DNA of 64,000 nt from Thermoplasmata archaeon (GTDB lineage Archaea; Thermoplasmatota; E2; JACPAO01; JAHFTW01), in assembly GCA_034667725.1 (NCBI GenBank), contig JAXDQS010000001.1, positions 173,593 through 237,592 of the forward strand, given 5' to 3'. The translations under genes and the position numbers were made by a program. Under the pieces are notes generated by a model that made no database searches, had not been told where the DNA came from, and saw only the letters and a program-made list of their open reading frames with translations. Below, piece by piece: positions 4,398-63,734 of this stretch; the stretch's first letter is position 1; every line of letters begins with the position of its first letter.

Positions 4398-4411
4398 GGG
4401 GGAAGCCAAGA

Positions 4412-4493: not shown

Positions 4494-4526
4494 GGTGGGT
4501 CGGGCGACCCCCGGCTTGTAGAAAAA

Positions 4527-6293: not shown

Positions 6294-6331
6294 CGGGGCG
6301 GGGACTTGGGTCTTGGGGAAAAACCGTGGCG

Positions 6332-8430: not shown

Positions 8431-8578
8431 GCGCCGCCATGGGCATGGACCCAAAAAGGGCGCAGGCTGTCGCCCACGCGTGAACCTCTACTGGCCCGAG
8501 CACCCCTTCCGCAGCGAGGCACGCCGCCAGCGCCGCCGGAAGGCGCGCTGGGCGGCGGCCGAACGGGCCGCGACCAAG

Positions 8579-15207: not shown

Positions 15208-15256
15208 CCCGCTGCCCGCCATACCATCAAATAGCTCCGAAACAACCCGCGCCTGC

Positions 15257-18420: not shown

Positions 18421-18522
18421 CCTGCACGCCAAGTTGCCTCTTTGCCCCAGAGGCACGGCCCTGCCGCGAACCTGGGGAAAGTCGGTGTTGCCTTGCCTGT
18501 CCGGGACCGTCCCATCGCCGCG

Positions 18523-22758: not shown

Positions 22759-25700
22759 ATGCCATCGACTTCCCGCGCGCGCACGTCATTCATCCTGGCC
22801 CTCCTCCTGGTGGCGGGCGCCTTGCCTGCGCTGCCGGTGGCCACCGCGGCCGCGCCGGTCGTGACGAGCGCCAACCTGCTGGACGAGGACAACAACGGCC
22901 ACCTCGACGCCGTGCTGCTGACGTTCGACCAGGCCATCCGGTCGGACAGCGTGCGGCCCAGCGACTGGACCCTCGGCTCGGCGGTCGCGCGCAGCGTCGA
23001 GCGCCAAAGCAGCACCCAGTTCAAGCTGTTCTTCCAGGAGGCGCTGGCCTTGGACGGCAACTCCAACGCCATCAACATCGCCTACACCCGCGAGGCCGAC
23101 CAGCCGCTCGAGAACCTGGCGACCCCCTTCGAGGACTTCACGGCCAGCACTGTGCCCGCCTCCGCCAAGAAGGACATGGCCAAGCCCATCCTGATGGCGG
23201 CCTACGCCGTCGAGGCCACCAACTACATCGTCGCCGTCTTCAGCGAGGCCGTCACCGACAACGCGGGCGCCATCCTGACCCATGACGAGTTCGTCCTCAC
23301 CGCGGGCGGCGCCGGCGCCCCCGCCATCGACACCACCGTCGCCGTCACCGCCCTTGGCTCCCCGGCCCGCGTGTTCCGCATCCCCCTGAACGCCGCCTGG
23401 ACCACGGCCCAGCTGGCGCACGCCACCAAGCCCACGCTGGCGATCTCCGGCACCAACCTGGTCAAGGACCTTGCCACCCCCGCCAACAACAACCCCACCG
23501 GCATGGCGGCCGTCCCCGTCGGCGCGCCCTTCATCGAGCGCGTCATGGCCAACCCCGGCGACGACCTCGTGGTCGTCGAGTTCAACGGCCCCGTGGCCGA
23601 CTCGACCGGCACCGCCCCGCTCCCGGCCACCTCGAGCGGCGACCTGACGCTGCGCTTCCAGGAAGGCTCCGGCGGCGGCGCCATCGTCACCACCGACATG
23701 GTGAACCCCGTCTTCTCCGACCGCGTCCAGCTCCGGGTCGACGCCCCGCTGCGCCCCGCCGACTTCGCCGCCGGCACCATCAGCAAGATCGTCGCCCAGA
23801 CGGACAAGGTGTTCGCGTGGAAGGGCGCCTCCAGCGTCGCGAGCTACAAGGTCCCCGCCGGCGCCGCCGGCAACCTGGCCGACGCCGACGTCTACACCAA
23901 CCCCTACCCGACCCGCCTGGAGACGGTGGACCGCGACCTCAACGGCTGCATCGACGCCATCCAGATGACCTGGAACGACGACATCCTCGACGCCAGCCTG
24001 GCCGCCAGCACCGGCTGGGTCGTCGTCTTCCCCAAGAAGGCCTCCGGCACCCCGCTGCCCACCACGCCGCCCGCGCCCGGCATCGTCGGCGCCACCCTGG
24101 TGAGCGCCATCACCGGCGCCGGCGTCTCCCCGACCCTGTCGCCCGGCGTGGACGACCGCGTCACCTTCCTGACCTTCACCGAGACCGACGCCGCCACCGG
24201 CTGCGACCTGTCCCTGCCGGCCCCCCTGGTGGGCAGCACCGGCCCCGCCGGCGTCCGCCTCCTGCCCCGCGTCTCGCACTGCGACGGCCTCGACTCCGGC
24301 TGCACCGGTCTCAGCCCGACCGACCGCGCCGGCCGCGGCATCGGCGCCTCGCGCGGCGCCTTCAACGACGCCGGCGTCCTGTTCCGCCTCCCGGTGATCG
24401 ACAGCGCCCGCCCCGTTTTGATGACGGCGGCGACCCGCGACCTGCCCTCGTCCCCCGACGGCCAGGTCGACCAGATCCTCCTCAGCTTCTCGGAGCCGAT
24501 GAAGCTCGGCACCCTCAAGCAGGCCCAGTGGAACGTCCGCGTGCCCGCCAACCAGGCCCAATGCCCGGTCCCCGCCAGCACGGCCTACACCGTCACCTCG
24601 GTCGGCTCCGCCTCCGGCACCTCCGGCGACACCGAGTCCCTGCTCCTGCTGGGCATCCAGCCCTCGGGCACCCCGGACACCGGCTGCATCCTCGACATCG
24701 CCTACGGCACCACGCCCAACGCCCTCGAGAGCAGCAACGGCCAGGTCCTGCCCGCCATCCCGGCCAACAGCCTCATCCTGACGACCGCCACCGCCACCGC
24801 CGGCGGCGCCAACAGCATCACCGCCGCCGCCACCAACTTCGCCACCGCGGGCGCCCTCACCGGCATGCGCGTCGACGTGAGCCGCGCCGGCACGCCGCTC
24901 GGCTCGTTCACCGTGACCGGGGTCGCCGGCACCACCCTGACGTTCTCGCCCGCCGTGGCGGCCGCCAGCGCCCCCATCGCCGCGGGCGACGTCGCCACGG
25001 TCTACCGCGAGCGCGACGGCGCCGGCCCCGTCCTCTTGGACGGCCGGCTCGTCGGCGCGGTCGGCTCCCGCTTCGCCACCGCCACCTTCAGCGAGGCGGT
25101 CCTCGGCGTCAACGGCAACGCCGTCACCAACACCGACCTGACCTACAAGAACAACGGCGCGGGCGGCGCCTCCGGCATCAGCTGCGTCGCCACCCCGAGC
25201 TACACCTCGGGCACCTGCACCCCCGACCCGGCCGTCACCACGAACCCGGCCCAGTTGTCGCTCACCCTGAACGCGGTGCTCGCCGGCGGCGACGTCGGCA
25301 CGGGCAAGGACTGCGTCCAGATCGTCAACTACATCCCGGACGAGAACAGCCTGAACCCCGCCAACCCCGGCGTGCGCGACGCCGCCGGCAACGTCGGCCA
25401 GCCGCTCGAGCCCTCGGGCCCCTGCCGCATCTTCTCCACGGGCGGCACCGTCGCCACCGTGCTCGCCATCGAGACGCTCGACACCAGCAACCCGCCCAAC
25501 GGCGCCATCGACGCCATCCGCGTCACCTTCACGGGCCCCGTCAACGACGACTTCACCGATGGCGTCGCCAAGTGGAAGGTCAAGTTCGGCACCACCACGG
25601 CCACCATCAACACCGTCCAGAGCGGCGGCAACTGCGGCGGCAGCACGCTGACCCCCGACGTCGCCAACGACGCCGTGGTGTTCCTCTGCATCGCGGAGCT

Positions 25701-28700
25701 CACCGACACCTCCGACCCGGCCAACCCGCTCATCCCCAACACCGGCGCCCTGCCCCTGGTGTCCTACTCGGGCACCCTGCTGGCCGGCGCCACCGACGGC
25801 CTGCCGGTCGCGACCTTCACGGACCGCGCCGCCACCGACGCCGCCCTGCCGGTCCTGATCACCGTGCGCGGCGGCGCCGGCCGCAACACCGTCGAGCTGC
25901 GGTTCTCGGAGGACGTCGTGGACGCCACCACCAAGGGCCCGCTCAAGGCCTCGAACTTCCTCTACTCGAACGGCAACGGCGGCTCCTCGACCTGCTCCAG
26001 CGGCGCCTCCAACATCGTGGACGTGCTGCCGGTCACCGGCTTCAACGACCGCTTCACCGGTGTGCTCAACACGCCGGCCGGCCAGCCGGGCCTGCACTAC
26101 GACGACATCGTCGGCTGCCCCACCGTCGCCAGCCGCGACGAGGTGCGCGCCCTGGCCTCGAGCATCATCGAGAAGGTCGGCCTGCGCGCCATGACCGACA
26201 GCACCCCGCGCGACATCCAGGACATCTTCGGCCCCGACATCCTGTCGGCCCGCTTCATCGACGCCCCAGCCCAGGCTGGCGCCGTCACGGGCGCGGACGG
26301 CACCATCGACGCCGTCGAGGTCCGGTTCCGCGAGTACGTCTCCGACGCCGCGGCCGCCTTCGGCACCAGTGCCACCGTCACCGGCCAGTGGGCCGTCAAG
26401 GTCAACGACGGCAGCCTCAAGACCCTCAAGGTCAAGGCCGTCGTCTCGAGCCAGAACGGCGTCCTCGGCGACAGTTGCACGGACACCCAGGCCCGCCCCC
26501 TCATCCTCTGGCCGGGCGAGGTCCAGCCGCCCACCAGCGGCCCCTCCAGCGTCAACGGCGTGGACGACGACACCCTGTTCCTCTGCCTGGAGAACACCGT
26601 CGGCGTCTCGACCCAGGGCACCCTGGGCCTCGGCACCGGCATGGTCGGCACCCTCAGCTACGCCGCCGCCAACCCGACGGCCCGCATCAAGGACCGCAGC
26701 GGCAACGGCTTCGCCGACATCACCCTCGGCAGCGCCCGCACCGTCACCGACGGCGCCCGCCCCGTCGTCCTCAACACCTGCCGCCCCGAGGTCACCCCAG
26801 CCCTGCGCTGCACCGGCGTGTCCCCCGAGTCGGCCGACCTCGACAACGACGGCCTCGTCGACGCCCTGCGCGTCGTGCTGTCCGAGCCCGTGAAGGACGA
26901 CACCTACAAGCAGGTCGAGTGGGACCTCGGCTCCGGCTTCGCCATCACCGGCATGGACACCGGCGTCACCGTCGACGACGCCACCATCTTCCTCAAGTTC
27001 AACGAAGGCGCCACGCCGGACACCGGCCGCGGCCGCGCCTCCCAGCCGGGCCTGCCCGACCTGACGTTCAGCTCGACCGGCACGATGGCGGACCGCGCGG
27101 GCAACCGCATCCGCGCCGTCCAGTCGGGCGCGTGCGGCGCCGCCACCGACACCCACTGCGCCGACGAGCGCGACGGCGTCGAGCCCGTGGTCGTGCGCTC
27201 CCAGGCCGAGGTCGGCTCCGACCTCGTCACCATCGCCCTCAGCGAGCCCGTCCAAGGCACCGGCCCGGTCGCCAGCGGCCGCCCCATCACCACCAGCGAC
27301 ATCGCCTACCAGAACAAGGCGGGCGCGGGCGACGGCGCCACCGGCATCGTGGCCATCTCCCATGTCGCGGGCGAGTCGGTCCTCACCATCAAGCTCGACA
27401 AGAAGGTCACCGAGTTCGACCGCCTCAACGACCGCTTCGTCTTCGTGACGGGCAGCATCAAGGAGGCCCAGTGCACGGTGTCGGCCACGACGCCCTCGTG
27501 CTACCGCCAGCTCGCCATGACGCGCCTCTTTGTCCCCATCGCCTTCGCCGGCGGCGCGGACCCCAAGCCGGCCGCCATCGACGACCTGGACGCCCCCGCC
27601 GAGGACGTCACCGCGACCTCGGTCCGCCTGACCTGGACCGCCCCCGACGACACCGACCTCGCGAGCTACCAGATCTACTTCTGCGAGTGCTCGTTCGCCG
27701 GCACCATCCCGACCGGCGCCCTGACGCCCCCGACCTCGGTCGTCATCCCGACCCCGGACCCCGGCGAGGCCCAGGAGGTCGTCATCACCGGCCTCACCAC
27801 CGGCAAGACCTACAACTTCGTCATCCGCGCCATCGACAACTCCGGCAACACCGCCGAGCTGTCGAACGTCGCGACCGCCCTCGTCGAGGCCCCGGACACC
27901 GAGGCGCCCGACATGGTGTTGGCCCTCCAGGACCTCGCCGCCAGCACCCCGCTGGGCTCCGTCGCCCTCGTCTGGGACGCCCCCGGCGACGACGGCGACC
28001 AAGGCACCGTGGCCGGCTACCGCATCGCGGTCGCCGACCGCCCGATCGCGGCCAGCGACTTCGAGGACTTCGAGACGACCGACTACTCGCTCAACCCGGC
28101 CGGCCTTGCGGACGCGGGCGACACCCAGCGCGCCACCATCTTCGGGCTCATCCCCGGCGACGAGGTGTTCGTGTACATCCTCGCGTACGACGACGCCAGC
28201 CCGCCCAACGAGTCGCCCCTCAGCGGCGCCGTCCGCGCCACCGTCGGCGGCACCACCACCGACCTGGCCGACCCCGGCCCCATCACCGACCTCACGGCCA
28301 CCGCCGCCACCGACAGCACGGTGGAGCTGGAGTGGCGCGCGCCCGGCGACGACGGCCTCTCCGGCGGCCCCGTCACCGGCTACGACGTCTACTACAGCAC
28401 CGCGCCGTTCGCGTCCTCGACCCGCCCGTCCGTGCCCCGCGCCTCCGACGTCACGCTGTCGCCCCGCACCCCCACGGCCGCCGGCCTGAGCCAGCGCGCC
28501 ACCGTCGGCGGACTGGAGTCCGACACCGTGTACTACTTCATGGTCCTGGCCCGCGACGACGCGACCAAGACCAGCGCCTCGAACGTGGTCAACCGCGCCA
28601 CCCTCCCCGGCGTCGGCGAGCTGACCATCGACGACCTGTTCGCCGCCAACAAGGAGCTCAACGAGAACCTCGAGGTCACCCACGAGGACGGCATCAACAT

Positions 28701-29388
28701 CGTGAGCTTCACCATCCCCGAGGCCGCCCGCGACGCCGCCAAGGGCCTGCAGGTCTGGCGCGCCGAGGAGTGCGACGACGCCAACTACGTGCTCGTCAAC
28801 ACCTACGACGCCGACGACAGCGTGTTCGAGGACGGCCGCTTCGAGGAGCCCGGCGCCACCACCGACTGCTACAAGGTCACGCTGTTCACCAAGGACAGCC
28901 AGGACTCCGCGCTCGGCCCCAAGGCCAACGCCAGCGACATCGAGCGGTTCGCCGAGCTCGACTCCGCCTCCGCCAGCGACGGCGGCATCGGCACCGGCAT
29001 GTGGCTGATGATCGGCGGCGGCGTTCTCCTGGCCATCCTGCTCGCGGCCCTGCTGGTCTTCCTGGTCCGCCGCCGTGGCGGCGGCCAGCAGACCCTGCCG
29101 CCCGAGGAGACGGCCGAGGGCGGCGAGGCCGGCGAGGGCTGGAGCGAGGTCCCGGAGGAGGGCGCGGCCGAGTCCGTCGCCCCCGCCGCGGACACCTGGT
29201 CCGAGCCCGCGCCCGCCGAGGCCGAGCCCGAGGCGCCGTTGGCCGCGCCGCCCGCCGCCGCGGCGACGACGGCCGCCACGACGCACTACGTGACCTGCCC
29301 GCGCTGCAGCTCGCCGTTCAGCGCCGTCGGCGTCAAGCCGCTCGCCATCCAATGCCCGAGCTGCGGCGTGCGCGGCACGCTGAAATAA
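22759..29388 (+). CDS. Giant type-I membrane surface protein (2209 aa): tandem Ig-like/Big_5-like domains, FN3 domains, TM helix, acidic cytoplasmic tail ending in a Cys4 zinc ribbon
   Basis: Signal peptide MPSTSRARTSFILALLLVAGALPALPVATAAA. Many ~100-aa repeats open with D.[DN].[DN]G.[IL]D[AG] and carry …FSEP[VM].D (e.g. DLDNDGLVDALRVVLSEPVKDD). Three FN3-like modules lie near the C-terminus (…VRLTWTAPDD…, …VELEWRAPGDDG…). TM MWLMIGGGVLLAILLAALLVFLV, then RRRGG + an E-rich linker, then HYVTCPRCSSPFSAVGVKPLAIQCPSCGVRGTLK. Confidence 0.8.
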   Translation: MPSTSRARTSFILALLLVAGALPALPVATAAAPVVTSANLLDEDNNGHLDAVLLTFDQAIRSDSVRPSDWTLGSAVARSVERQSSTQFKLFFQEALALDGNSNAINIAYTREADQPLENLATPFEDFTASTVPASAKKDMAKPILMAAYAVEATNYIVAVFSEAVTDNAGAILTHDEFVLTAGGAGAPAIDTTVAVTALGSPARVFRIPLNAAWTTAQLAHATKPTLAISGTNLVKDLATPANNNPTGMAAVPVGAPFIERVMANPGDDLVVVEFNGPVADSTGTAPLPATSSGDLTLRFQEGSGGGAIVTTDMVNPVFSDRVQLRVDAPLRPADFAAGTISKIVAQTDKVFAWKGASSVASYKVPAGAAGNLADADVYTNPYPTRLETVDRDLNGCIDAIQMTWNDDILDASLAASTGWVVVFPKKASGTPLPTTPPAPGIVGATLVSAITGAGVSPTLSPGVDDRVTFLTFTETDAATGCDLSLPAPLVGSTGPAGVRLLPRVSHCDGLDSGCTGLSPTDRAGRGIGASRGAFNDAGVLFRLPVIDSARPVLMTAATRDLPSSPDGQVDQILLSFSEPMKLGTLKQAQWNVRVPANQAQCPVPASTAYTVTSVGSASGTSGDTESLLLLGIQPSGTPDTGCILDIAYGTTPNALESSNGQVLPAIPANSLILTTATATAGGANSITAAATNFATAGALTGMRVDVSRAGTPLGSFTVTGVAGTTLTFSPAVAAASAPIAAGDVATVYRERDGAGPVLLDGRLVGAVGSRFATATFSEAVLGVNGNAVTNTDLTYKNNGAGGASGISCVATPSYTSGTCTPDPAVTTNPAQLSLTLNAVLAGGDVGTGKDCVQIVNYIPDENSLNPANPGVRDAAGNVGQPLEPSGPCRIFSTGGTVATVLAIETLDTSNPPNGAIDAIRVTFTGPVNDDFTDGVAKWKVKFGTTTATINTVQSGGNCGGSTLTPDVANDAVVFLCIAELTDTSDPANPLIPNTGALPLVSYSGTLLAGATDGLPVATFTDRAATDAALPVLITVRGGAGRNTVELRFSEDVVDATTKGPLKASNFLYSNGNGGSSTCSSGASNIVDVLPVTGFNDRFTGVLNTPAGQPGLHYDDIVGCPTVASRDEVRALASSIIEKVGLRAMTDSTPRDIQDIFGPDILSARFIDAPAQAGAVTGADGTIDAVEVRFREYVSDAAAAFGTSATVTGQWAVKVNDGSLKTLKVKAVVSSQNGVLGDSCTDTQARPLILWPGEVQPPTSGPSSVNGVDDDTLFLCLENTVGVSTQGTLGLGTGMVGTLSYAAANPTARIKDRSGNGFADITLGSARTVTDGARPVVLNTCRPEVTPALRCTGVSPESADLDNDGLVDALRVVLSEPVKDDTYKQVEWDLGSGFAITGMDTGVTVDDATIFLKFNEGATPDTGRGRASQPGLPDLTFSSTGTMADRAGNRIRAVQSGACGAATDTHCADERDGVEPVVVRSQAEVGSDLVTIALSEPVQGTGPVASGRPITTSDIAYQNKAGAGDGATGIVAISHVAGESVLTIKLDKKVTEFDRLNDRFVFVTGSIKEAQCTVSATTPSCYRQLAMTRLFVPIAFAGGADPKPAAIDDLDAPAEDVTATSVRLTWTAPDDTDLASYQIYFCECSFAGTIPTGALTPPTSVVIPTPDPGEAQEVVITGLTTGKTYNFVIRAIDNSGNTAELSNVATALVEAPDTEAPDMVLALQDLAASTPLGSVALVWDAPGDDGDQGTVAGYRIAVADRPIAASDFEDFETTDYSLNPAGLADAGDTQRATIFGLIPGDEVFVYILAYDDASPPNESPLSGAVRATVGGTTTDLADPGPITDLTATAATDSTVELEWRAPGDDGLSGGPVTGYDVYYSTAPFASSTRPSVPRASDVTLSPRTPTAAGLSQRATVGGLESDTVYYFMVLARDDATKTSASNVVNRATLPGVGELTIDDLFAANKELNENLEVTHEDGINIVSFTIPEAARDAAKGLQVWRAEECDDANYVLVNTYDADDSVFEDGRFEEPGATTDCYKVTLFTKDSQDSALGPKANASDIERFAELDSASASDGGIGTGMWLMIGGGVLLAILLAALLVFLVRRRGGGQQTLPPEETAEGGEAGEGWSEVPEEGAAESVAPAADTWSEPAPAEAEPEAPLAAPPAAAATTAATTHYVTCPRCSSPFSAVGVKPLAIQCPSCGVRGTLK

Positions 29389-29398
29389 CCCATCCTGC

Positions 29399-29600
29399 CG
29401 AGCCGGGGGCCGCCGCGCGCGTGAGCGCGCAGGACCGAGCACGCCCGCCTGCGCGAGCATCGCGAGCGCACGGGCCGAGGGCGCGGCCCCCTCGCCGTGG
29501 GGGCGCAGGGGGCGAAGCCCCCGCGCAGGCGGAACGAACCGCAGTTCGTTCCGAGCCGAACCTGTTCCTTGTCGTTTTAAATACTTCCCGGGATGGAGCG
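29399..29600 (+). repeat. Conserved GC-rich intergenic element, copy A (terminator-like hairpin + BRE/TATA), between giant genes 1 and 2
   Basis: ~200 nt aligning with 34291-34500 at roughly 80% identity by eye (CGAGCCGGGGGCCGCC.GCGCGTGAGCGC.CAGGAC…). A 9-bp-stem hairpin GGAACGAAC-cgcag-GTTCGTTCC lies at 29531-29552 and is followed by CCGAGCCGAACCTGTTCCTTGTCGTTTTAAATAC. Confidence 0.7.
29575..29584 (+). promoter_or_regulatory. Archaeal TATA box (TTTTAAATAC) with upstream purine-rich BRE-like CG, promoter of giant gene 2
   Basis: AT-rich TTTTAAATAC in an otherwise ~70% GC context, ~74 nt upstream of ATG 29658. An identical box precedes giant gene 3. Confidence 0.5.
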
Positions 29601-29657
29601 GACCAAGCACCGGACGCCGGACCTTAGGGCCCGGCTTCCGCCCGCAGGTTGATCCCC

Positions 29658-32600
29658 ATGGCCGCCGGTCCCTCCTCTAAACCTCACGCCTTCCGCAGCG
29701 TCGCCGTCTTGACGGCGCTCCTGGTGGCCGTCCTGGCGCCGCTGATTCCGCAGGCTGTCGCCGACGGGACCAGCCTCAGCATCGCGGTCGGTCCCCACTT
29801 CGAGATCGACACCTCGAGCCCGACGTTCCAGGGCTGCCCCGGGTCGGACGCGACCAGCCCGCAGCTGCGCGCGCGCCCCGACGACGCGGTCGTGCAGACG
29901 CGGACGGTCCGCGTCTTCAACGGCGCCGCCGCCACGCAGACGCAGGTGACGTTCCGCTACACGGTGGCGGGCCCCGGCGCGCCGCCGGTGGACCGCTCCC
30001 TGACCTGGGACGAGGAAGGCTCCTCGGCGGCGGGCTGGACCGTGCAGGCCATCAACACCGGCAGCACGGCGGGCTCCTTCCGGGACCTGGTGTTCAACTC
30101 CGGCTCGCTGGTCCCCGGCGCCGCCGACTTCACCATCGCGTTCCGCGTCCCCACCACCGCCGTCGGCGACGCCGGCACCGCCACGCCTGACCTGTACCCC
30201 ATCAACGTGCGCACGGCCGGCGGCGGCGACTTCGAGTCCACCCCGCAGCCGACCAGCTTCTGCATCCGCGTCGACAACAAGGCGCCCAAGCTCACGGACG
30301 CCGTCACCCGCGACACCGACGCCGACGGCCGCATCGACGCCTACGTCCTCACCTTCGACGAGCCCATGGACACGGCGGCCTCCGCCGCGCAGTTCGAGGT
30401 CAAGAGCGTGACCGACCCCAGCCCCTACCAGCCGCTGGGCTTCCGCGCCTCGCACACCTTCCGCCCCGGCGCCGGCACCAACCTGGGCGAGAAGACCGAC
30501 GCGCTGCTGGACCGCCAGGCCGTCCTCAACCTCGCGCCCGGCTACTCCTACGACACCGGCGAGAAGCCGGACGTCACGTACCCGAAGGGCGGCGCCGTCG
30601 GCGTCATCCAGGACCAGGCCGGCAACAAGCTGGGCAAGATCGTCACCTCCGACGTCTCGGAGCGCGACGGCGCCAAGCCGGTGCTGGTGAGCGCCTACGG
30701 CTTCGACGGCGCCACCAACATCATCCTCACCTTCAGCGAGAAGGTCTCGGGCTCGCGCGCCGACAAGAACCTCGCCCTCGCGGACCTGTTCTACGAGGAC
30801 TCGCTGCAGACCAAGAACTGCATCGGCGCCACCGACGGCGTCTCGGCCGAGCTGGGCGAGCCCAAGCCGAGCCCCGCGCCCGCGCCCGCGACCACCTTCA
30901 TCATCCCGGTGCTCACGAGCCGCGCCGGCGCCGGCTGCACCAGCGTCCGCGTCGGCGACGGCGACTCGCACCCGTCCGCCGGCGACCGCATCAAGTTCTT
31001 CGACACTGGAAACTCGTGCGTCGGCCGCGACTTCGACCCGTGCGGCGCGCCCGTGTACGACGTGGCCAGCCTGCACGCCGTCCCCGCCCGCAACGCGCCG
31101 GTCGTCGTGACCGGGCCGTTTGTGAAGGAGGCCGAGGTCAACATCGACTCGTTCCAGTTGACGCTGCGCTTCAACGGCCCTGTCAGCTCGGCCCGCGGCG
31201 AGGACCAGCCCATCCGGCTGGAGGACCTCGACGTGGTGGCGGCCGACGGCACCGGCCAAGGCCCCGGCGGCATCGTCAACGTGCTGCACCGCCCCGGCTC
31301 CGACAAGGCCATCATCACCCTCGACCGCCGCACCCGCCCGACCGACGTGGACGACACGCCGGCGCGCATCAACATCCAGTGCAACGCGATCAAGGGCACC
31401 GGCCTGCCCAGCTTCGTCCCGTGCGGCGACCCGGACAACGACCGCTCGCCCGACGTCAACATGGTGGACCACACCCCGCCCGCCATCGTGGCCGCCGGCA
31501 CCTACGACGGCAACCGCGACGGCTACATCGACGGCGTCAGCCTGCTGTTCAACGAGCCGGTCGACGACGCCACCTTCTGCATCCAGAAGAACGTCGGCGT
31601 CCAGCCGCGCACCATCGCGCACGACTTCGGCGCCACCCCGGACAACATCTGCAACAACCTGGACATCCTGGAGATCGCGTCCATCCCTGGCCCCTACACC
31701 TTCGACACCGACAAGGTCCAGAACGACGCGCAGGGCATCATCAAGTTCCCGCAGCGCGCCCCGCCGACCTTCAAGCCGGACACCAGCGAATACCTGCCCT
31801 ACTCGATCAAGACCACCGGCGACGGCCTGTTCGCCGACCTGGCCCACCCCGAGCCGCCGACGCCCGGCGTCGAGCCGTGGCAGACCGCGAACCTGATGCT
31901 GCGCATCTCGAAGGACCCGGTCACCTGCCCCGACCCGAACATCCCGTGCGCCACCACGCTCACGGTCGCCGACTGGGCCCCGCCCGTCGTGCTGTCCGCC
32001 CAGACCGTGGACACCAAGCCCGCCGTCAAGCCCTCGGACATCGGCGCCCTCGGCTCCGACCCCGTGCCCGACCTCGAAGGCGACGGCTTCCTCGACGGCT
32101 ACCGCGTCACCTTCTCGGAGCGCATCGACGACACCTCGTTCAACGCCGCCGAGTGGCAGGTCGCGGGCTACAAGGTCACCGGGATGCGCACCTACGAGCC
32201 GCACGTCACCAAGAAGGCCGACCAGAAGGCCCTCAGCAACGACACGGTCATCACCATCCAGTTCGAGCCCAGCAAGGTGGCCGACACCGACGCGCGCCCC
32301 GAGCTGCACTACCTCGGCTCGACCCAGGCCCGCGCCGGCCTCGACGACCTCGTCGGCAACCGCCTGCTGCCCTTCGGCTCCATCGGCGTCAACGAGGCGG
32401 ACGACGCCGGACCCGTCATCGTCGGCATCGCCGCCATCGCGGGCCGCGCCGACGTGACGCTGCTGTTCAGCGAGCCCGTCGACGACGGCAGCCACGGCGC
32501 CTTGTCGCGCCGCGCCCTCCAGTACGGCAACGTCAACGCCAACAAGGTCGCCGAGAGCGCCGCCTCCGGCATGGCCGACCAGGACGCCGTGGTGCACAAG

Positions 32601-34196
32601 CCGGCCACGCGCTCGGTCGTGATCACCCTCAATGCCCCGCTGAGCACCGGCGACATCAACGACGACACCATCGCGGCCCAGCCGAACTCGGTGTTCGAGA
32701 CCTCGCCGACGGTGCAGGCCAAGAAGGTCGCGTCCTACAAGCCGCACGGCATGGACTTCGCCCGCGACGGCGTGCCCCCGGGCAACGTCACCGCCTCGGT
32801 CGTCGCCCCGCTCATCACCGCCAACTCGGTGACGCTGCAGTGGACCGCGCCCGGCAACGACGGCACCTCGACCCTGCCGGCCCCCGCCCGCGACGGCAAG
32901 ACCTACGCCAACGTCACCGGCTACCTCGTCAAGGTGTCCTCCGAGCCCATCACGCCGGAGAACTTCCTGTCGCCGGCCGCCCCGGGCACCATCGCCTTCG
33001 GCTACTCCGACGCCGCCGCCAAGCCGTTCACCGACGGCTCGCGCAACGAGATGGAGCTGGACGACCTGGTCGCCGTGTTCAACCCGGACCTCGGCGCGCT
33101 CGCCGGCCCCGGTGTCATGCAGCAGGTGACGGTGCGCGGCCTGAAGTCCAACACGCTGTACTACTTCGCCGTGGCCGCGTTCGACGACTCCGCCCCCGAG
33201 CCCCAGCTTGGCGGCATCGGCACCGGCACGGTCAGCGCCACCACGGCCGTCGACCCGACGCCGCCCATCGGCACCCCGGTCATCACCTCGAGCACGCACC
33301 GCCCCGACGTCACCCGCCCCAGCAACAGCAAGACCGCGATTTTCGACTGGACGCCGGCGCGCGACGACGAGTCGCTGGTCACCTACCACACCGCGGTCAA
33401 CCACGACCCCGGCTACGTCGCCACCGCGACCGACGAGATGACCACCCGCCTCAGCAAGGAGGTCGTCGTGTCCACCGAGGGCGTCTGGACCTTCCACGTC
33501 GCCGCGTGCAGCGGCGGCGGCTGCGGCGCCACCGGCCACTACAACTTCGGCGTCGGCTACTCGCCGCTCGACAAGCAGGAGATCCGGGTCGCCAACCAGT
33601 ACGTCAACTTCACGGCCGTCCGCGACGACAAGGCGAAGTCCACCACCATCACGTGGGAGCTGCCGCCCGAGGAGTTCCTGCCGTCGCGCGCCAACCTGGA
33701 GGCCGTCGTGGTGTACCGCCTCGACTGCGAGCCCAGCGCCGGCTGCAAGCCCACCGAGGTCCAGCGCGTCAACGGCGACTACACCAACCTCAAGACCGGC
33801 TCGGTCACGGACACCTCCGACAAGGCGACGCTGGCGTCGGCCTACCGCGTCGACATGGTGTTCGCCTCCGGCCAGGAGCAGGCCGAATCCCTCAGCGGCT
33901 TCTCCAAGGTCCGCGACGTCACCCCGGCCGAGTCCAACCTGATGTGGATCCTCATCGCCATCGGCGCCGTCGTGCTCCTGGCCATCGTGGGCTTCGTCGT
34001 GTACGCCATGCGCCGCAAGGGCCCCGGCGCCGCCGAGGCCTGGACCGAGGACCAGCCGGCCGGCACCGACCCGACCAGCGGCCTGCCGGCGCACGACGTC
34101 CGCTGCCCGAGCTGCCAGACGGCGTTCCAGGCGGTGGGCACGCTGCCGTTGCAGATCACCTGCCCCAACTGCGGCGTCGGTGGCCTGCTCCAGTAA
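29658..34196 (+). CDS. Giant type-I membrane surface protein paralog 2 (1512 aa) with identical C-terminal TM + zinc-ribbon architecture
   Basis: Signal peptide MAAGPSSKPHAFRSVAVLTALLVAVLAPLIPQAVA. Repeats carry DTDADGRIDAYVLTFDEPM, DGNRDGYIDGVSLLFNEPVDD and LEGDGFLDGYRVTFSERIDD. FN3-like region (…VTLQWTAPGNDG…). TM WILIAIGAVVLLAIVGFVVYAM, then a tail …TSGLPAHDVRCPSCQTAFQAVGTLPLQITCPNCGVGGLLQ. Alternative TTG start at 29649. Confidence 0.8.
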   Translation: MAAGPSSKPHAFRSVAVLTALLVAVLAPLIPQAVADGTSLSIAVGPHFEIDTSSPTFQGCPGSDATSPQLRARPDDAVVQTRTVRVFNGAAATQTQVTFRYTVAGPGAPPVDRSLTWDEEGSSAAGWTVQAINTGSTAGSFRDLVFNSGSLVPGAADFTIAFRVPTTAVGDAGTATPDLYPINVRTAGGGDFESTPQPTSFCIRVDNKAPKLTDAVTRDTDADGRIDAYVLTFDEPMDTAASAAQFEVKSVTDPSPYQPLGFRASHTFRPGAGTNLGEKTDALLDRQAVLNLAPGYSYDTGEKPDVTYPKGGAVGVIQDQAGNKLGKIVTSDVSERDGAKPVLVSAYGFDGATNIILTFSEKVSGSRADKNLALADLFYEDSLQTKNCIGATDGVSAELGEPKPSPAPAPATTFIIPVLTSRAGAGCTSVRVGDGDSHPSAGDRIKFFDTGNSCVGRDFDPCGAPVYDVASLHAVPARNAPVVVTGPFVKEAEVNIDSFQLTLRFNGPVSSARGEDQPIRLEDLDVVAADGTGQGPGGIVNVLHRPGSDKAIITLDRRTRPTDVDDTPARINIQCNAIKGTGLPSFVPCGDPDNDRSPDVNMVDHTPPAIVAAGTYDGNRDGYIDGVSLLFNEPVDDATFCIQKNVGVQPRTIAHDFGATPDNICNNLDILEIASIPGPYTFDTDKVQNDAQGIIKFPQRAPPTFKPDTSEYLPYSIKTTGDGLFADLAHPEPPTPGVEPWQTANLMLRISKDPVTCPDPNIPCATTLTVADWAPPVVLSAQTVDTKPAVKPSDIGALGSDPVPDLEGDGFLDGYRVTFSERIDDTSFNAAEWQVAGYKVTGMRTYEPHVTKKADQKALSNDTVITIQFEPSKVADTDARPELHYLGSTQARAGLDDLVGNRLLPFGSIGVNEADDAGPVIVGIAAIAGRADVTLLFSEPVDDGSHGALSRRALQYGNVNANKVAESAASGMADQDAVVHKPATRSVVITLNAPLSTGDINDDTIAAQPNSVFETSPTVQAKKVASYKPHGMDFARDGVPPGNVTASVVAPLITANSVTLQWTAPGNDGTSTLPAPARDGKTYANVTGYLVKVSSEPITPENFLSPAAPGTIAFGYSDAAAKPFTDGSRNEMELDDLVAVFNPDLGALAGPGVMQQVTVRGLKSNTLYYFAVAAFDDSAPEPQLGGIGTGTVSATTAVDPTPPIGTPVITSSTHRPDVTRPSNSKTAIFDWTPARDDESLVTYHTAVNHDPGYVATATDEMTTRLSKEVVVSTEGVWTFHVAACSGGGCGATGHYNFGVGYSPLDKQEIRVANQYVNFTAVRDDKAKSTTITWELPPEEFLPSRANLEAVVVYRLDCEPSAGCKPTEVQRVNGDYTNLKTGSVTDTSDKATLASAYRVDMVFASGQEQAESLSGFSKVRDVTPAESNLMWILIAIGAVVLLAIVGFVVYAMRRKGPGAAEAWTEDQPAGTDPTSGLPAHDVRCPSCQTAFQAVGTLPLQITCPNCGVGGLLQ

Positions 34197-34290
34197 AGCC
34201 GAGACGGCCCTTTTTCCTTTCCTTCTCCCTGTTTTCGTCCCCACTGGACACAGATTCCACAGATTCGCTGGAAGCTGGCGGGTCGAGCGT

Positions 34291-34500
34291 CGAGCCGGGG
34301 GCCGCCGTGCGCGTGAGCGCACAGGACGAGCGGGCCGGCCCGTGCGAGCGAAGCGAGCGCGCCGGCGCGAGGAGCGGCCCCCAAGCCGGGGGGTCGCAGG
34401 GGCGCAGCCCCCGTTCCCAACAGGCGGGACGAACCGCGCAGCGTGTTCGTCCCGAGCCGAATCTGTTCCTTGGCGTTTTAAATACCCCCAGGATTGGATG
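34291..34500 (+). repeat. Conserved GC-rich intergenic element, copy B, between giant genes 2 and 3
   Basis: Same element as copy A. The hairpin GGGACGAAC-cgcgcagcgt-GTTCGTCCC at 34426-34453 shows compensatory A:T→G:C changes on both stem arms relative to copy A. It is followed by CCGAGCCGAATCTGTTCCTTGGCGTTTTAAATAC. Confidence 0.7.
34476..34485 (+). promoter_or_regulatory. Archaeal TATA box (TTTTAAATAC), promoter of giant gene 3
   Basis: Identical TATA sequence to the giant-2 promoter, ~36 nt upstream of ATG 34521. The conserved flanks are GTTCCTTG[G/T]CGTTTTAAATAC. Confidence 0.5.
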
Positions 34501-34520
34501 CCTTACCCCGCTGGTGGCGT

Positions 34521-37500
34521 ATGGTCAACCGAAAATCCGCGTCCCTCCCCTACGTGCTGGCTTTCCTGATGGTGTTCTCCATCTCGCAAGCCATCGTGCC
34601 CGAGGCGGAGGCAGGCGTCGCCCCCGCTGGCCTCATGAGCGTCTCCGTCGAGCCCAGCTTCACGACCAACGTCATCATGGTCAAGCAGGGCATCAGCGCC
34701 GAGCGCCTGGTGCGGGTGTCGCAGGGCGACCCGCTCAACCCGATGACGACCATCGAGTTCGTCTGGTTCATGCGCGACGACACTTCGACGCCGGCCTGCC
34801 GCGGCCCGCCGCGCGACCTGTGCGCCACGGCCGTCAAGTTCGACTGGATCAAGGAGACCAGCTACGCCATGCGCCCCGGCTGGAAGGTCGAGGCCGCCAC
34901 CTCCACGGCCGCCAAGATCCTCCGCTTCGTCTCCGACGGCACCCAGGAGCTGCGCTCGGGCACGCCGCAGGACTTCAACGTCGCCTTCAGCCAGCGCGGC
35001 GCCGCCCAGGACGACGAGTACCACATCCAGGTCCGCGGCTACTGCGGCGCCGAGTGCCAGCCCGGGGTCGCCTTCGAGACCACCTGCGCCAGCACCCGCG
35101 CCCCCGAGTTCACCTGCATCCACACCAACCCGCCCTTCACCGGCGCCGCCCCGATCCCCGCGGCGGACTGCAACGCGCCCTGCGGCCAGCTGCCGAGCCT
35201 GGTGCTGCGCATCGACAGCGTGCCCCCGGACCCGCCGGCGGTCATCATGCAGGACATCGACCACAACGGCCACATCGACCGCTTCGTGGCGGACTTCCCC
35301 AAGAAGCTCGACGCCAAGTCGTTCGACGCCCGCCTGTTCACCCTCACCGCCCGCGGCCGCCTGTTCGGCTCCAGCCTCACGGACGCCGGCTACACCATCC
35401 AGAACGCCTACTTCGTCAACCCGGACAACCCGGTGCGCGTGGTCTTCCTGGTCAACGAGATGCCGTACTACGACACCGGCGACCAGGTCAACCTGCGCTA
35501 CGCCGGCACCAGCCTGCGCGACGAGGCCGGCAACCCGCTGCGCGGCATCAACGTCCAGGCCACCGACCGCGCCCCGCCGGTCATCGTCGCCGCCTACGGC
35601 CTCCAGGGCTACGACGGCGTCCACGTGACCTTCAGCGAGCCGGTCGTCGGCACCGGCAACGCCCAGGACCCCGCCACCGGCGTCGGCCTGCAGGACCTGC
35701 TGTTCTTCGACGACGGCGGCAGCGCCCCCGACAGCAAGGTCGGCTGCCCCGCCGCGAGCCCGTGCGTCCTGAGCATCGCCGACTCCCGCTTCGGCGCCAT
35801 CACGCACCAGCCCGGCCCCCGCACCGGCCACCAGGCCACCATCAAGACCTCGATCAACCCGGTCACGAGCACGCCCTACACCTTCGGCCCCAACGACGTG
35901 CACCCGCTCAAGGGCGACATGCTCGGCGTCGCCTCCAGCGGCGCCGCCTGCGCCCCCGGCGAGGACCCGCCCTGCGACTCGAAGATCAAGGACGCGGCCG
36001 GCCTCAAGATGTGGCACCCGCTCACGGCCCCCGCGTCCGTCCGGCACATCACCCGCCCCCTCCTGGTGCGCGCCGAGGTCGACATCGGCTCCGACGCCCT
36101 CAAGCTCTGGTTCAACGGCCCCGTGCGCGCCGCCAAGGAGCCCGGCGTCACGACGCCCCAGCCGATCTCGGTGTCCAACATGGACATCGTGACGGCGGCC
36201 GGCACCGGCGTCGGCCCCCAGGGCCTCATCGGCGACTACTTCCGCGCCGTCGACCAGGACTTCATCGTCGTCAAGCTCGACGCCAAGGCCCGCCCCACCG
36301 ACGTCGACGCGACCCCGACCTCGATCCGCCCGCACTGCAAGAAGATCGTCGGCAGCGGCCTCCCCGAGACCAACGACCAGGCGTTCCTGCCGTGCGACAA
36401 CCCGGACCTGTTCTACGAGCAGGAAGCCCGCGTCAAGGGCACCGGCACCTTGGACGCCAAGGGCCGCGACCACGACCTGCCGTCGCCCGGCGCCGCCTTC
36501 GTGGACGACACGCCGCCGCGCATCGTCCAGGTCCGCACCGTGGACACCGACCACAACGGCTGGCTCGACGGCCTCGAGCTCACCATGAGCGAGCCCGTGG
36601 ACGACGTCACGTTCTGCTCGAACGCCAACACCGCCCCCAACTTCTGCCCCGACTCCTGGACCCCGGTCGGCGGCATCTCCCAGGTCGGCCTCGTGATGAT
36701 GCAGAACCTGCGCGCCACCGACGACCGCTCGCAGGAGTGCCTCGGCCTCTACCGCTGGGAGACCGGCCTGGTGGTCAACGACAACGTCGGCATCATCAAG
36801 GCCATCAACGTCGAGCGCAGCCCCACCGGCGAGTACATCGTGACCAGCCGCGACTGCGTCGAGCGCTACTTCAACCAGGACACCGGCATCCGCATGGACA
36901 CCGGCCACCTGCCGACCTTCACCACCACGGCGCGCGGCCTGTTCGCCGACCTGTCGGTGCCGGAGAACCGGATGCCGCAGTACTGCCAGCTGCAGCGCCT
37001 CACCCACTTCCACCACCCGGACGCCGCCACCACCAAGGACTGCGGCCTCCTGGCCAGCACCAAGGCGCAGTACACCGCCCCCGTCTCCGACGGCGCCCCG
37101 CCGGTCGTCATGGCCGCCCGCACCGTGGACACGCCCGCCGTCAACAAGGACGGCATCCCGGACAAGCCCGCCGTGAACCTCTGGGGCGACGGCCGCATCG
37201 ACGGCTACCGCCTCACCATGAGCGAGTCCGTCAAGGACTCCACCTTCGACCGCCGCGACTGGCTGGTGCAGCGCCTCGGCGCCGCGCAGGCCCCGATCCA
37301 CGAGGTCAACGGCTTCCGCAGCTACGACCTCAACGAGACCCTGGGCGCGCTGCGCTCCAACGACCGCGAGCTCACGGTGCTGTTCAACCCGGACACGGTG
37401 CCCGACACGGACGCCCGCCCCGAGCTGACCTACCGCCGCGACCCCGACAGCAAGGGCCTCGCGGACATCGTCGGCAACGTCATGGTGGACTTCGACGAGT

Positions 37501-39284
37501 TCGCCGTGGTCGAGCAGGACGACTCCCGCCCCGTCATCGTGGGCATCGAAGGCTACGTCGGCGAGCGTGTCCTGACCCTCCACTTCAGCGAGCCCGTGGA
37601 CGACGGCGCCCAAGGCAAGCTGGTGTCGGAGGACTTCTTCTACCACAACAACGACGCGACCACGAACCCCGGCGGTGTTGCCGGCAAGGCGGTGTCCAAC
37701 CCGGAGACGGGACAGGCGGTCAACGTCATCCACGTCCCCGACGTCGACTGCACCGGCAACCTCGAAGAGGACGCCGACGGCTGCAACGAGAAGGCCATCA
37801 TCCCGCTCGACCGCGCCCTCACCAACTCCGACCTGACCACCGACCGCATCAACGCGGAGAAGGACACCATCTACGAGAAGGCCCCCACCGTGGTGCCGGT
37901 GCAGCGCAAGGCGGTGCCGAACTTCCAGCAGAAGCTGTCGGTCGGCGCCGACGTGACGCCCCCGGCCAAGGTCACGGACCTGCGCGTGCAGACCGACGCC
38001 GTGCTCGCCAACTCGGTGCTGCTGGCCTGGACCGCGCCCGCGGACGACAGCCTGGCCGGCGGCGCCGTGACGAGCTACGTCTTCAAGGTGTCCACCAGCG
38101 CCATCGACCCCGCCGGCTTCGACGCCTTGGTCAACCCGAACGGCATCACGCCCGAGTTCGAGCCCGCCGCCATGGCGGCGGTCAACCAGACGCAGACCCT
38201 GCGCCTCGTCGGCTTGAACCCGACCACCCAGTACCACTTCGCCATCCGCGCCGTGGACGAGGCGGGCAACGCCGGCGGCGTCTCCAACGCCGTCACGGCG
38301 CTCACCTCGCGCGACGCCACGGCGCCCGTCGGCACCCTCACGGTCTCGAGCACCAGCCACAAGGCCGGCGAGACGGCCCCCAAGGTGCAGGGCATCTTCT
38401 CGTGGAACAAGCTGGAGGACCCCGAGTCCACCGTCGTGTACCGCTACGCCCTGACCGGCAGCCCCGCCTACCAGGTGCTGGCCGCCGACAAGTCCGTGAC
38501 CGGCACCAGCGTCACCGTCGACATCCCCTCCGAAGGCGACTGGACGTTCCACGTCGCGGCCTTCAGCGGCGGCGGCTCGACCCCGACGGCGCACTTCTCG
38601 TTCGGCCGCGGCTCCCCCGTGCTGGCGGCGGACGCCATCGCCGCCGCCAACGACCGCCTCAAGGACAACGTCGAGATCGTCCGCAAGCCCGTCGAGATCC
38701 AGGACGGCGTCGAGGTCGACCTCAACACCATCACCTGGACCCTGCCGCCCGAGTCGGACCTGCCCGGCACCCTCGAGGCCATCGAGATCTGGCGCCTCGA
38801 CGCCGGCATCCCGACCCTGGTCACGACCCAGCCCGGCAGCTACAGCGAGCTCAAGAGCGGCAACTTCACGGACGTCACCCAAGGCGCGGACGAGAACTCG
38901 CTCTACCGCGTCAACATGGTGTTCGCGCAGGACCAGCGCCAAGCCGACCCAAGCGTCTCCGGCCAGTTCAAGGCCCTCCAGAACCAGACGCCCGGCGAAA
39001 TCCCCGCCTGGGTCTACGTCCTGGCAGGCATCGCGCTGGCGTTGATCATCGCGGGCATCATCATCTACTTCGTGCTGCGCGGCCGCCAGAAGGCCGCCGC
39101 GGCCGGAGGGGTGGCGTACTCGTGGGAGTCGGCCGACCCGGAGGCCCTCGGCATCGACGAGGCCACCGGCCTGCCGGTCCACGAGGTCAAGTGCCCGTCG
39201 TGCAACAACCCGTTCCAGGCGGTGGGCGTCCTGCCCCTGCCGGTGACGTGCCCGACGTGCCAGACGACGGGCATGCTGGAGTAA
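34521..39284 (+). CDS. Giant type-I membrane surface protein paralog 3 (1587 aa) with identical C-terminal TM + zinc-ribbon architecture
   Basis: Signal/anchor MVNRKSASLPYVLAFLMVFSISQAIVPEAEA. Repeats carry DIDHNGHIDRFVADFPKKLD, DTDHNGWLDGLELTMSEPVDD and WGDGRIDGYRLTMSESVKD. FN3-like region (…VLLAWTAPADDS…). TM VYVLAGIALALIIAGIIIYFVL, then a tail …ATGLPVHEVKCPSCNNPFQAVGVLPLPVTCPTCQTTGMLE. Confidence 0.8.
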   Translation: MVNRKSASLPYVLAFLMVFSISQAIVPEAEAGVAPAGLMSVSVEPSFTTNVIMVKQGISAERLVRVSQGDPLNPMTTIEFVWFMRDDTSTPACRGPPRDLCATAVKFDWIKETSYAMRPGWKVEAATSTAAKILRFVSDGTQELRSGTPQDFNVAFSQRGAAQDDEYHIQVRGYCGAECQPGVAFETTCASTRAPEFTCIHTNPPFTGAAPIPAADCNAPCGQLPSLVLRIDSVPPDPPAVIMQDIDHNGHIDRFVADFPKKLDAKSFDARLFTLTARGRLFGSSLTDAGYTIQNAYFVNPDNPVRVVFLVNEMPYYDTGDQVNLRYAGTSLRDEAGNPLRGINVQATDRAPPVIVAAYGLQGYDGVHVTFSEPVVGTGNAQDPATGVGLQDLLFFDDGGSAPDSKVGCPAASPCVLSIADSRFGAITHQPGPRTGHQATIKTSINPVTSTPYTFGPNDVHPLKGDMLGVASSGAACAPGEDPPCDSKIKDAAGLKMWHPLTAPASVRHITRPLLVRAEVDIGSDALKLWFNGPVRAAKEPGVTTPQPISVSNMDIVTAAGTGVGPQGLIGDYFRAVDQDFIVVKLDAKARPTDVDATPTSIRPHCKKIVGSGLPETNDQAFLPCDNPDLFYEQEARVKGTGTLDAKGRDHDLPSPGAAFVDDTPPRIVQVRTVDTDHNGWLDGLELTMSEPVDDVTFCSNANTAPNFCPDSWTPVGGISQVGLVMMQNLRATDDRSQECLGLYRWETGLVVNDNVGIIKAINVERSPTGEYIVTSRDCVERYFNQDTGIRMDTGHLPTFTTTARGLFADLSVPENRMPQYCQLQRLTHFHHPDAATTKDCGLLASTKAQYTAPVSDGAPPVVMAARTVDTPAVNKDGIPDKPAVNLWGDGRIDGYRLTMSESVKDSTFDRRDWLVQRLGAAQAPIHEVNGFRSYDLNETLGALRSNDRELTVLFNPDTVPDTDARPELTYRRDPDSKGLADIVGNVMVDFDEFAVVEQDDSRPVIVGIEGYVGERVLTLHFSEPVDDGAQGKLVSEDFFYHNNDATTNPGGVAGKAVSNPETGQAVNVIHVPDVDCTGNLEEDADGCNEKAIIPLDRALTNSDLTTDRINAEKDTIYEKAPTVVPVQRKAVPNFQQKLSVGADVTPPAKVTDLRVQTDAVLANSVLLAWTAPADDSLAGGAVTSYVFKVSTSAIDPAGFDALVNPNGITPEFEPAAMAAVNQTQTLRLVGLNPTTQYHFAIRAVDEAGNAGGVSNAVTALTSRDATAPVGTLTVSSTSHKAGETAPKVQGIFSWNKLEDPESTVVYRYALTGSPAYQVLAADKSVTGTSVTVDIPSEGDWTFHVAAFSGGGSTPTAHFSFGRGSPVLAADAIAAANDRLKDNVEIVRKPVEIQDGVEVDLNTITWTLPPESDLPGTLEAIEIWRLDAGIPTLVTTQPGSYSELKSGNFTDVTQGADENSLYRVNMVFAQDQRQADPSVSGQFKALQNQTPGEIPAWVYVLAGIALALIIAGIIIYFVLRGRQKAAAAGGVAYSWESADPEALGIDEATGLPVHEVKCPSCNNPFQAVGVLPLPVTCPTCQTTGMLE

Positions 39285-39450: not shown

Positions 39451-39483
39451 GTCGGCTAAATGCGTGAAACCTGTGGAGTCCCT

Positions 39484-45940: not shown

Positions 45941-46018
45941 CGGTGATGGAGCCCGGGGACTGGTTCAAAAGGCTTGGCAGGCCCAAACCGCTTTCTCGTC
46001 GCCCCCAGTCGCAGCCTT

Positions 46019-47206
<1,188 letters not shown>

Positions 47207-47290
47207 CGCTGGCGGGCAATCGGCGCCAGCGTCCGCCTTGGGCCAGGATTAGCCGAAAGCCTCACCTGTATTCCCTGGCCTCGTGGCCCG

Positions 47291-63703: not shown

Positions 63704-63734
63704 GGAAAACCGGGGTCCCGGGCGGCTGCGGGGG

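Follow-up and report, generated by a model that had tools for sequence, protein, structure and literature searches.

How the surface structures of archaea are connected to the interior of the cell is largely unsettled, and the described archaeal anchors, either a transmembrane (TM) helix with a short basic tail or a PGF-CTERM lipid anchor, end at the membrane. The locus analysed here bears on this question. It lies in a stretch of 64,000 nucleotides from an archaeon of the class Thermoplasmata, which includes wall-less organisms (GenBank assembly GCA_034667725.1, contig JAXDQS010000001.1, positions 173,593 to 237,592; the window hereafter). Three giant surface proteins are encoded in tandem on the plus strand, G1 (2209 aa, 22759-29388), G2 (1512 aa, 29658-34196) and G3 (1587 aa, 34521-39284), and each ends in a tail with four cysteines (Cys4) that would lie inside the cell. 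The question is what such a domain does on the inner side of a giant surface protein.

An earlier note, made from the DNA sequence alone, had described three co-directional paralogs of these lengths, and this description is borne out. The open reading frames (ORFs) have the same boundaries as independent gene calls on contig Ga0467041_0000031 of the JGI metagenome 3300044738. The G+C content of the window is about 72%, that of third codon positions (GC3) is 0.98 in all three long plus-strand ORFs, and the high-GC3 frames agree with the gene calls. Paralogy is shown by the pairwise identities: G2 (the cluster representative P0002) and G3 align end to end with 32.5% identity (E 8e-171), and G1 and G3 share 27.6% identity over 431 aa (E 1e-22) in addition to other local matches. 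Each protein begins with a hydrophobic segment read as a signal peptide (about 22759-22854 in G1, 29658-29762 in G2 and 34521-34613 in G3). A Kyte-Doolittle scan detects exactly one strong C-terminal TM segment per protein, as had also been proposed, located 60-130 residues before the C-terminus. It corresponds to positions 28984-29079 in G1 (directly followed by RRRGGG), 33927-34016 in G2 (followed by RRK) and 38994-39086 in G3 (followed by RGRQK). G1 is identical to the NCBI entry MEA3189588.1, "hypothetical protein QOD77_170 [Thermoplasmata archaeon]". Genes for TFB (62237-64000, minus strand) and for a Trm1-like tRNA methyltransferase were recognised in the window from their translations, without a family-library scan. 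From these genes and the label on the protein identical to G1, the DNA is judged to be archaeal, and a bacterial origin was dismissed.

The C-terminal tails carry the main finding. They extend over positions 29284-29385 in G1 (HYVTCPRC...CPSCGVRGTLK, motif at 29296-29364), 34092-34193 in G2 (HDVRCPSC...CPNCGVGGLLQ, motif at 34104-34172) and 39180-39281 in G3 (HEVKCPSC...CPTCQTTGMLE, motif at 39192-39260). The elements H, V, CPxC, F, AVG, PL, CPxC, G and L are invariant among the three. A strict regular expression of the motif, applied to the six-frame translation of the window, matches at the C-termini of the three giants and nowhere else. The motif announced by the earlier note is thus present in all three proteins, with some details to be amended: the CPxC pairs are 15 residues apart (19 from the first to the third cysteine) and not 18, the second pair reads CPTCQ and not CPxCG in G3, and the TGLP said to be shared by G2 and G3 is SGLP in G2.

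The last ~185 residues were converted into a profile and used in an exhaustive HMMER search of 1.84 billion cluster representatives. This search recovered 347 representatives at E<=1e-3, of which 120 remain at E<=1e-10 and 27 at E<=1e-30, and the best 150 of the 347 matches were inspected. Nearly all of these 150 combine a signal at the N-terminus with one TM helix near the C-terminus and a terminal CxxC-x15-CxxC; their lengths range from about 200 to 3090 aa and most are giants of 1300-3090 aa. The alignment of 120 tails reveals the near-invariant signature H-x3-CPxC-x3-F-x-[AV]-x-G-x2-P[LI]-x3-CPxCG-x2-G-x-L-x-COOH. The four cysteines, G11 and P14 are each conserved in 100% of the tails, the prolines of the first and second CPxC in 98% and 99%, F7 in 98%, [AV]9 in 97%, [LI]15 in 96%, G26 in 99%, L28 in 96% and the histidine at position -4 in 86%. 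Conservation of the cysteines in homologs, whose absence the earlier note would have counted against its claim, is therefore essentially complete in this family. The protein ends exactly 7 residues past the last cysteine in 113 of 122 family members. A degenerate DNA pattern of the signature, scanned over the JGI metagenome collection, detected 20 loci with a G+C content of 0.61-0.74, all 20 with the same 7-residue ending; the pattern was not found in viral contigs. Among the GTDB species representatives, close relatives of this C-terminal region occur in two genomes only (loci L003 and L004), where fused G2- and G3-like giants are in the same order as in the window. A word-indexed homolog search recovered a single protein, P0001, with the last 230 aa and none with the tail as query; its candidates (8000) were probably swamped by low-complexity words of the linker.

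No Pfam or NCBIfam model matches the tail at its cut-off. The commonest weak match is Zn_ribbon_4 (PF13717, MJ0042 type), found for 54 of 60 tails at E<0.01 (best E 1.3e-6). The tails of the window score 18.3-23.5 bits against its curated cut-off of 30.3, and the best of the 60 tails is estimated by E-value scaling at ~29 bits, still below this cut-off (the G3 tail has 21 bits in this comparison). The related model TIGR02098 (MJ0042_CXXC) gives 14.3 bits for G2, with a cut-off of 20.9. These two models share with the tail the layout CPxC-x3-F...CPxCG, and equally weak matches were obtained with many other zinc-ribbon models. Profile matches of the tail to C2H2 fingers in the PDB were rejected as artefacts of a resemblance to the linker "G-E-K-P-x-x-CPxCG". 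The literature search found no paper describing a giant surface protein with a C-terminal cytoplasmic ribbon. The fold of the zinc ribbon is already known, and so are giant archaeal surface proteins with a TM anchor (e.g. PySLP); the family of C-terminal cytoplasmic ribbons, its union with giant type I surface proteins and its portable cassette appear to be undescribed in the libraries and literature searched.

The fixed distance to the C-terminus could suggest a sorting or processing signal, either removed by an archaeosortase-like or rhomboid-type enzyme or serving as target of a C-terminal modification. Genes for a RimK-type ATP-grasp ligase and an AstE/AspA-like deacylase directly follow G3 in the window (39460-41417) and its counterpart in L030 (4027-5884), and RimK enzymes are known for the addition of glutamate to protein C-termini. 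However, the pair is not found at this position in L001, L003 and L004, and the idea that it modifies the tail was dismissed, as it is not kept in three of the five related loci. In NCBIfam, the CTERM sorting-domain models give no match at E<=0.1, in agreement with the earlier note, which recognised in the giants none of the described archaeal anchoring systems such as PGF-CTERM or PEF-CTERM. These systems also combine a C-terminal TM helix with a basic cluster on archaeal surface proteins, but they consist of a motif, the helix and a short basic tail. The giants lack the signature motif before the helix and extend for 60-130 residues beyond it, a folded Cys4 domain included. A sorting or processing signal is therefore highly improbable.

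The orientation of the tail was deduced from the distribution of charges. Within 10 residues of the TM core, lysine and arginine residues number on average 3.15 on the tail side vs 0.68 on the ectodomain side, and they are more numerous on the tail side in 110 of 117 homologs. Because of this excess and of the signal peptides, the tail is predicted to be cytoplasmic; the positive-inside rule thus agrees, in the window as in the homologs, with the location proposed by the earlier note. AlphaFold2 models were obtained for the C-terminal cassette of G3 (from an alignment of 27 sequences) and for the tail alone (60 sequences). The cassette model contains a beta-sandwich (residues 5-71, predicted local distance difference test, pLDDT, >90), the TM helix (residues 99-132, pLDDT 97-98), a disordered linker and a tail of four strands (pLDDT 92-96). 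The membrane-proximal beta-sandwich corresponds to positions 38724-38924 in G3 and, according to alignments of the cassettes, approximately to 28696-28890 in G1 (aligned with G2, G3 and P0001) and 33642-33866 in G2. A Foldseek search with the whole cassette returned generic FN3/Ig sandwiches only, none at E<=1e-3. In the model of the tail alone (pLDDT 91), strands 6-10/17-21 and 26-29/36-39 flank the CPxC pairs, located at hairpin turns, and the top structural neighbours are all Cys4 ribbons. Sequence pattern and confident model together strongly support the assignment of the tail to the zinc-ribbon fold class, as had been anticipated.

Between helix and ribbon, the linker was expected to be acidic and rich in E, P and A. 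It is so and long in G1 (29080-29283, about 67 aa), where it contains two motifs of a tryptophan followed by an acidic residue (GWSE and TWSE), whereas it measures about 25-30 aa in G2 (34017-34091, containing EAWTED) and in G3 (39087-39179, containing AYSWES, with low pLDDT). In the family, a median of 35 residues (range 18-134) separates the TM helix from the ribbon, and the linker contains 24% of D+E. Tryptophan represents 3.5% of the linker residues vs 0.9% in the ectodomains, and 137 of the 175 linker tryptophans have D or E within the next 3 residues. Such W-acidic patterns are typical of short linear binding motifs in disordered tails. The linkers of some homologs contain 4-5 W-acidic motifs in tandem.

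The cassette also exists as a gene of its own. In P0001, a protein of 220 aa, a lipoprotein-type signal (LLMAGC) is joined to the beta-sandwich of the cassette, to a TM helix and to a G3-type ribbon. On contig Ga0597037_0003823 (L031:3-10395 and L001:1-10663), the orthologs of all three giants are split: a G1-like giant is accompanied by a gene for 278 aa, a G2-like giant (1423 aa) by one for 220 aa and a G3-like giant (2136 aa) by another for 220 aa. Each split giant ends in its own anchor ...ALP-TM-RRRR[AE]. The small gene overlaps the stop codon of the giant (ATGA), has its own signal peptide or lipobox and encodes the beta-sandwich, TM helix and ribbon. In a more distant organism (L030:1-3941), a split G3-type pair precedes the RimK and AstE-like genes, as G3 does in the window. 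The DNA of the junction, CGGAGGCGCCGCGCATGAAG, is conserved across paralogs and genomes (L031:4437-4460, L031:9713-9736, L001:9981-10004 and L030:3283-3306). The codons CGG-AGG of the RRRR stretch create there a GGAGG located ~8 nt 5' of the ATG of the small gene, which we infer to be a Shine-Dalgarno-like element for translational coupling. In a neighbour-joining tree of the cassettes, built without support values, the split forms nest among the fused ones in the G1, G2 and G3 clades. Because of this nesting, the split state is, on this tree, all-or-none per genome yet polyphyletic per paralog, and parallel events or gene conversion may be behind this pattern. The additional segment of the split forms reads as a helical hairpin (TM helix, RRRR loop, signal peptide), so that fusion or splitting would leave the location of each domain relative to the membrane unchanged. 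These comparisons strongly support the cassette as a separable, autonomous unit, either fused to a giant or encoded by a separate small gene.

Since the split giants keep a plain TM-RRRR anchor, the ribbon is, as far as the sequences indicate, dispensable for anchoring a giant. This bears on the view that the ribbon is a passive stopper or topogenic element, a fast-folding zinc domain keeping the C-terminus of a long Sec substrate inside and strengthening the anchor against pulling. Its constant position at the extreme C-terminus, a short distance past the last TM helix, and the giant size of most carriers (1300-3090 aa) would fit such a role. We nevertheless consider it quite unlikely, as the ribbon of the split pairs sits on a protein of 212-278 aa and not on the giant, other surface proteins of the window are anchored by a plain TM-RRR, and the conservation of surface positions (H-4, G11, P14 and G26) exceeds the need of a mere plug. 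The ribbon is also carried by polytopic proteins which do not need an extra anchor.

These polytopic proteins of 506-532 aa (L010, L014, L016, L023 and L024; for instance L023:10064-11584, L016:8001-9539 and L024:10953-12551 (minus strand)) have no Pfam match. Besides a TM helix at the N-terminus, they comprise an ectodomain that bears an EF-hand-like DxDxNG loop, three more TM helices, a long P/A-rich linker and the terminal ribbon. Their gene is preceded by those of a ZIP zinc transporter and a NikR-like regulator and followed by those of a CheY-like receiver and an MCM-OB-like protein. With the pattern H-x3-C-x2-C, present in 86% of the tails, this neighbourhood could indicate a metal or redox sensor, whose Cys4(+His) site would report cytoplasmic zinc or thiol redox state and switch the membrane protein or a bound regulator, as in the ZAS anti-sigma factors (zf-HC2), which share the same pattern. 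We regard a sensor as improbable: the ZIP/NikR neighbourhood is restricted to closely related loci (L010, L014, L016 and L023) and does not surround the giants, the tail is predicted to fold as an all-beta ribbon, unlike the helical ZAS domain, and the 25 Pfam families that the tails match most often do not include zf-HC2. To our knowledge, archaea have no sigma factors.

A protein of 249 aa with two TM helices (L012) also ends in the ribbon, and more distant relatives have 2-4 or more ribbons in tandem after the TM helix (P0051, P0078, P0105, P0107, P0109 and P0151). One of them, P0105 (L028:2984-9985), is a NosD/beta-helix giant of 2333 aa, and the association of giant surface proteins with cytoplasmic zinc ribbons thus seems to be a broader theme. 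Tandem ribbons are compatible with multivalent clustering, and the ribbons, with or without the W-acidic linkers, might bind each other and cluster the proteins into an S-layer-like array, no separate partner being involved. The three co-located paralogs are kept as a trio in relatives, and giant TM-anchored S-layer proteins of similar architecture exist (10.64898/2026.08.21.746120). There is, however, no sign of contacts between ribbons, and the polytopic ribbon proteins encoded beside a CheY-like receiver are not obviously components of a lattice; self-association is in our opinion unlikely.

We favour instead a docking function of the tail. The giant is best explained as a type I membrane protein, exported via its N-terminal signal peptide, whose large beta-rich ectodomain with FN3 domains stands on the C-terminal cassette, composed in this order of the beta-sandwich outside, the TM helix, the inner basic cluster, the disordered acidic linker with its W-[DE] motifs and the 34-residue Cys4 ribbon. 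Protein-protein docking would fall to the ribbon, perhaps jointly with the W-acidic linker, and through it the giants and the other tail-bearing membrane proteins would bind a common cytoplasmic partner, the purpose being positioning, assembly or outside-in signalling. This function is proposed because positions without structural role are conserved, because the tail occurs on unrelated membrane proteins, because the linker is W-acidic and because the tail is located in the cytoplasm. The proposal builds on an architecture, topology, fold class, conservation and separability that are either directly seen or strongly supported, and its own chances we hold to be about even. Several points weigh against it. 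Zinc binding by the ribbon is itself a prediction. The earlier note had suggested a coupling of the giants to a cytoplasmic partner and proposed a search for co-occurring conserved cytoplasmic proteins; the all-against-all clustering of neighbours in 12 loci detected no cytoplasmic protein conserved beyond close relatives; only the giants themselves are widely shared. Several short "stand-alone" matches of the tail are probably fragments or have mis-called starts. Finally, the bacterial proteins ZitP and GltJ, compared below, carry their ribbons at the N-terminus of N-in proteins, an arrangement opposite to that of the giants. A bolder version, in which the ribbon is a lineage-wide "docking tag" of uncultured Thermoplasmata that connects a portable cassette, fused or in trans, to one scaffold, motor or signalling hub, is doubtful.

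Concerning the ectodomains, the earlier note had overstated their content as dozens of Big_5/SbsA-like repeats, each opening with a calcium-binding-like motif. The strict motif D.[DN].[DN]G.[IL]D occurs in 3, 2 and 2 copies in G1, G2 and G3, respectively, FSE[PA]V-like motifs in 6, 4 and 4 copies, and F[ST]EP[VM].D in 0, 1 and 1 copies. Neither Big_5 nor SbsA_Ig matches the full-length giants at E<=0.01, and seven isolated modules have no Pfam match of any kind even at E<=1. The announced FN3 modules were recovered in G1 (best-scoring domain at 28279-28590, Pfam fn3 E 1.3e-23 in 2 stretches, with a second FN3 upstream) and in G3 (37971-38291, 31 bits for a cut-off of 25, E 3e-07), whereas the score in G2 is below threshold (22 bits). 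Searches of the ectodomains against Pfam, NCBIfam and PDB sequences gave nothing beyond FN3, the full-length PDB searches showing weak FN3 similarity. Because the motif counts are low and the modules are without Pfam matches, the ectodomain is best described as predicted beta-rich modules outside current models, of which some contain a DxDxDG loop, with FN3 domains after them. In L001, the ortholog of G3 type (3594-10004, 2136 aa) includes a Kelch/beta-propeller-like insertion in which "GTSAVW...C..GCAYIFGG" blades are repeated; G3 of the window lacks it, which points to modular turnover of the ectodomain.

The giants are included in an island of surface proteins (13540-22629 and, on the minus strand, 43931-45964). 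This island encodes a transglutaminase-like lipoprotein (13540-15207), an S8 subtilase with TSP3 repeats (about 15260-17497), a second lipoprotein (17539-18420), a BNR/TSP3 protein (18442-22629) and a PKD/Big_9/TSP3 protein (43931-45964, minus strand). The subtilase, the BNR/TSP3 and the PKD/TSP3 proteins, but not the two lipoproteins, end in a plain TM helix with an RRR-type tail, which seems to be the default anchor of the lineage. In all close relatives, the gene of a FtsX/MacB-like permease-like protein of 438-485 aa is conserved on the downstream side of the G3-type giant (window 41414-42748; L030:7391-8707; L001:10744-12099; L003:10899-12332; L004:10617-12074). The Pfam family FtsX was recorded for the L030 ortholog only, which is 31% identical to the protein of the window (E 3e-54), and no cognate ATPase gene adjoins it. 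Like an acyl-CoA dehydrogenase, it is conserved among close relatives only.

Some other observations were made around the giants. The regions 5' of G2 and G3 (29389-29657 and 34250-34520) share 79% identity over ~200 nt, with cores at 29544-29584 and 34445-34485. They contain the palindrome GGAACGAACCGC...GTTCGTTCC followed by the TATA-like TTTTAAATAC. The upstream region of G1 is unlike these two, and the related loci did not yield the element. Behind the stop codon of G2 lies a T-rich stretch (34205-34235). At 47207-52636, an ORF of ~1780 aa without Pfam match displays a run of ~11-residue repeats (...LAMLGEPIDRLAGVMALLSEPTDRVAATLAMLSEPVDRVASALA...) and larger repeated modules. In several loci (window 57628-58980, minus strand; L029:3791-5146; loci around L001), genes for membrane-anchored HTH_HVO_0163_N/wHTH regulators of ~450 aa recur no more than 10-20 kb away from the giants.

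Among the known systems, the giants are similar in architecture to PySLP of Pyrobaculum, a colossal TM-anchored S-layer protein which unites anchor, stalk and outer part in one chain (10.64898/2026.08.21.746120). Both have a signal peptide, one TM helix near the C-terminus and, behind it, a conserved tail in the cytoplasm, and PySLP is rich in Ig/FN3 domains (10.64898/2026.08.21.746120). In the giants, FN3 is present and the remaining modules match nothing in Pfam or the PDB. PySLP and the giants were not found to be related in sequence, and the tail of PySLP, unlike theirs, is a short basic stretch ending in Lys, without zinc ribbon.

For the tail itself, the closest functional precedents, by analogy, are the MJ0042-type ribbons of ZitP and GltJ. 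These are cytoplasmic ribbons of bitopic proteins that bind a scaffold (PopZ) or recruit a regulator (MglB), and the cytosolic zinc-finger domain of GltJ is a switch recruiting MglB that works next to a disordered linker (PMC11135422). They share with the tail of the giants a small Cys4 ribbon on the cytoplasmic side of a single-pass protein belonging to a surface or adhesion machinery. They differ in being bacterial and N-terminal, whereas the giants are archaeal type I proteins with the ribbon at the extreme C-terminus, and the signature H-4, G11, P14 and G-x-L-x-COOH is specific to the family of the giants. In sequence, the tail profile matches the ZitP zinc finger (2nb9) weakly and below significance (E 0.037), and no link to PopZ, MglA or MglB was seen in the neighbourhoods examined.

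The tail is a conserved folded cytoplasmic domain of giant surface proteins, common to other membrane proteins and genetically separable, and its 34-residue ribbon provides a concrete bait for what the envelope couples to in Thermoplasmata. A model of this domain family, which is outside the current Pfam and NCBIfam models, would improve the annotation of several hundred "hypothetical" giants. A cytosolic zinc-ribbon domain is also found on the membrane protein TMEM55B (PIP4P1), where it recruits a motor adaptor (JIP4). If true, the docking tag would be an archaeal counterpart of transmembrane coupling of the focal-adhesion/integrin type.

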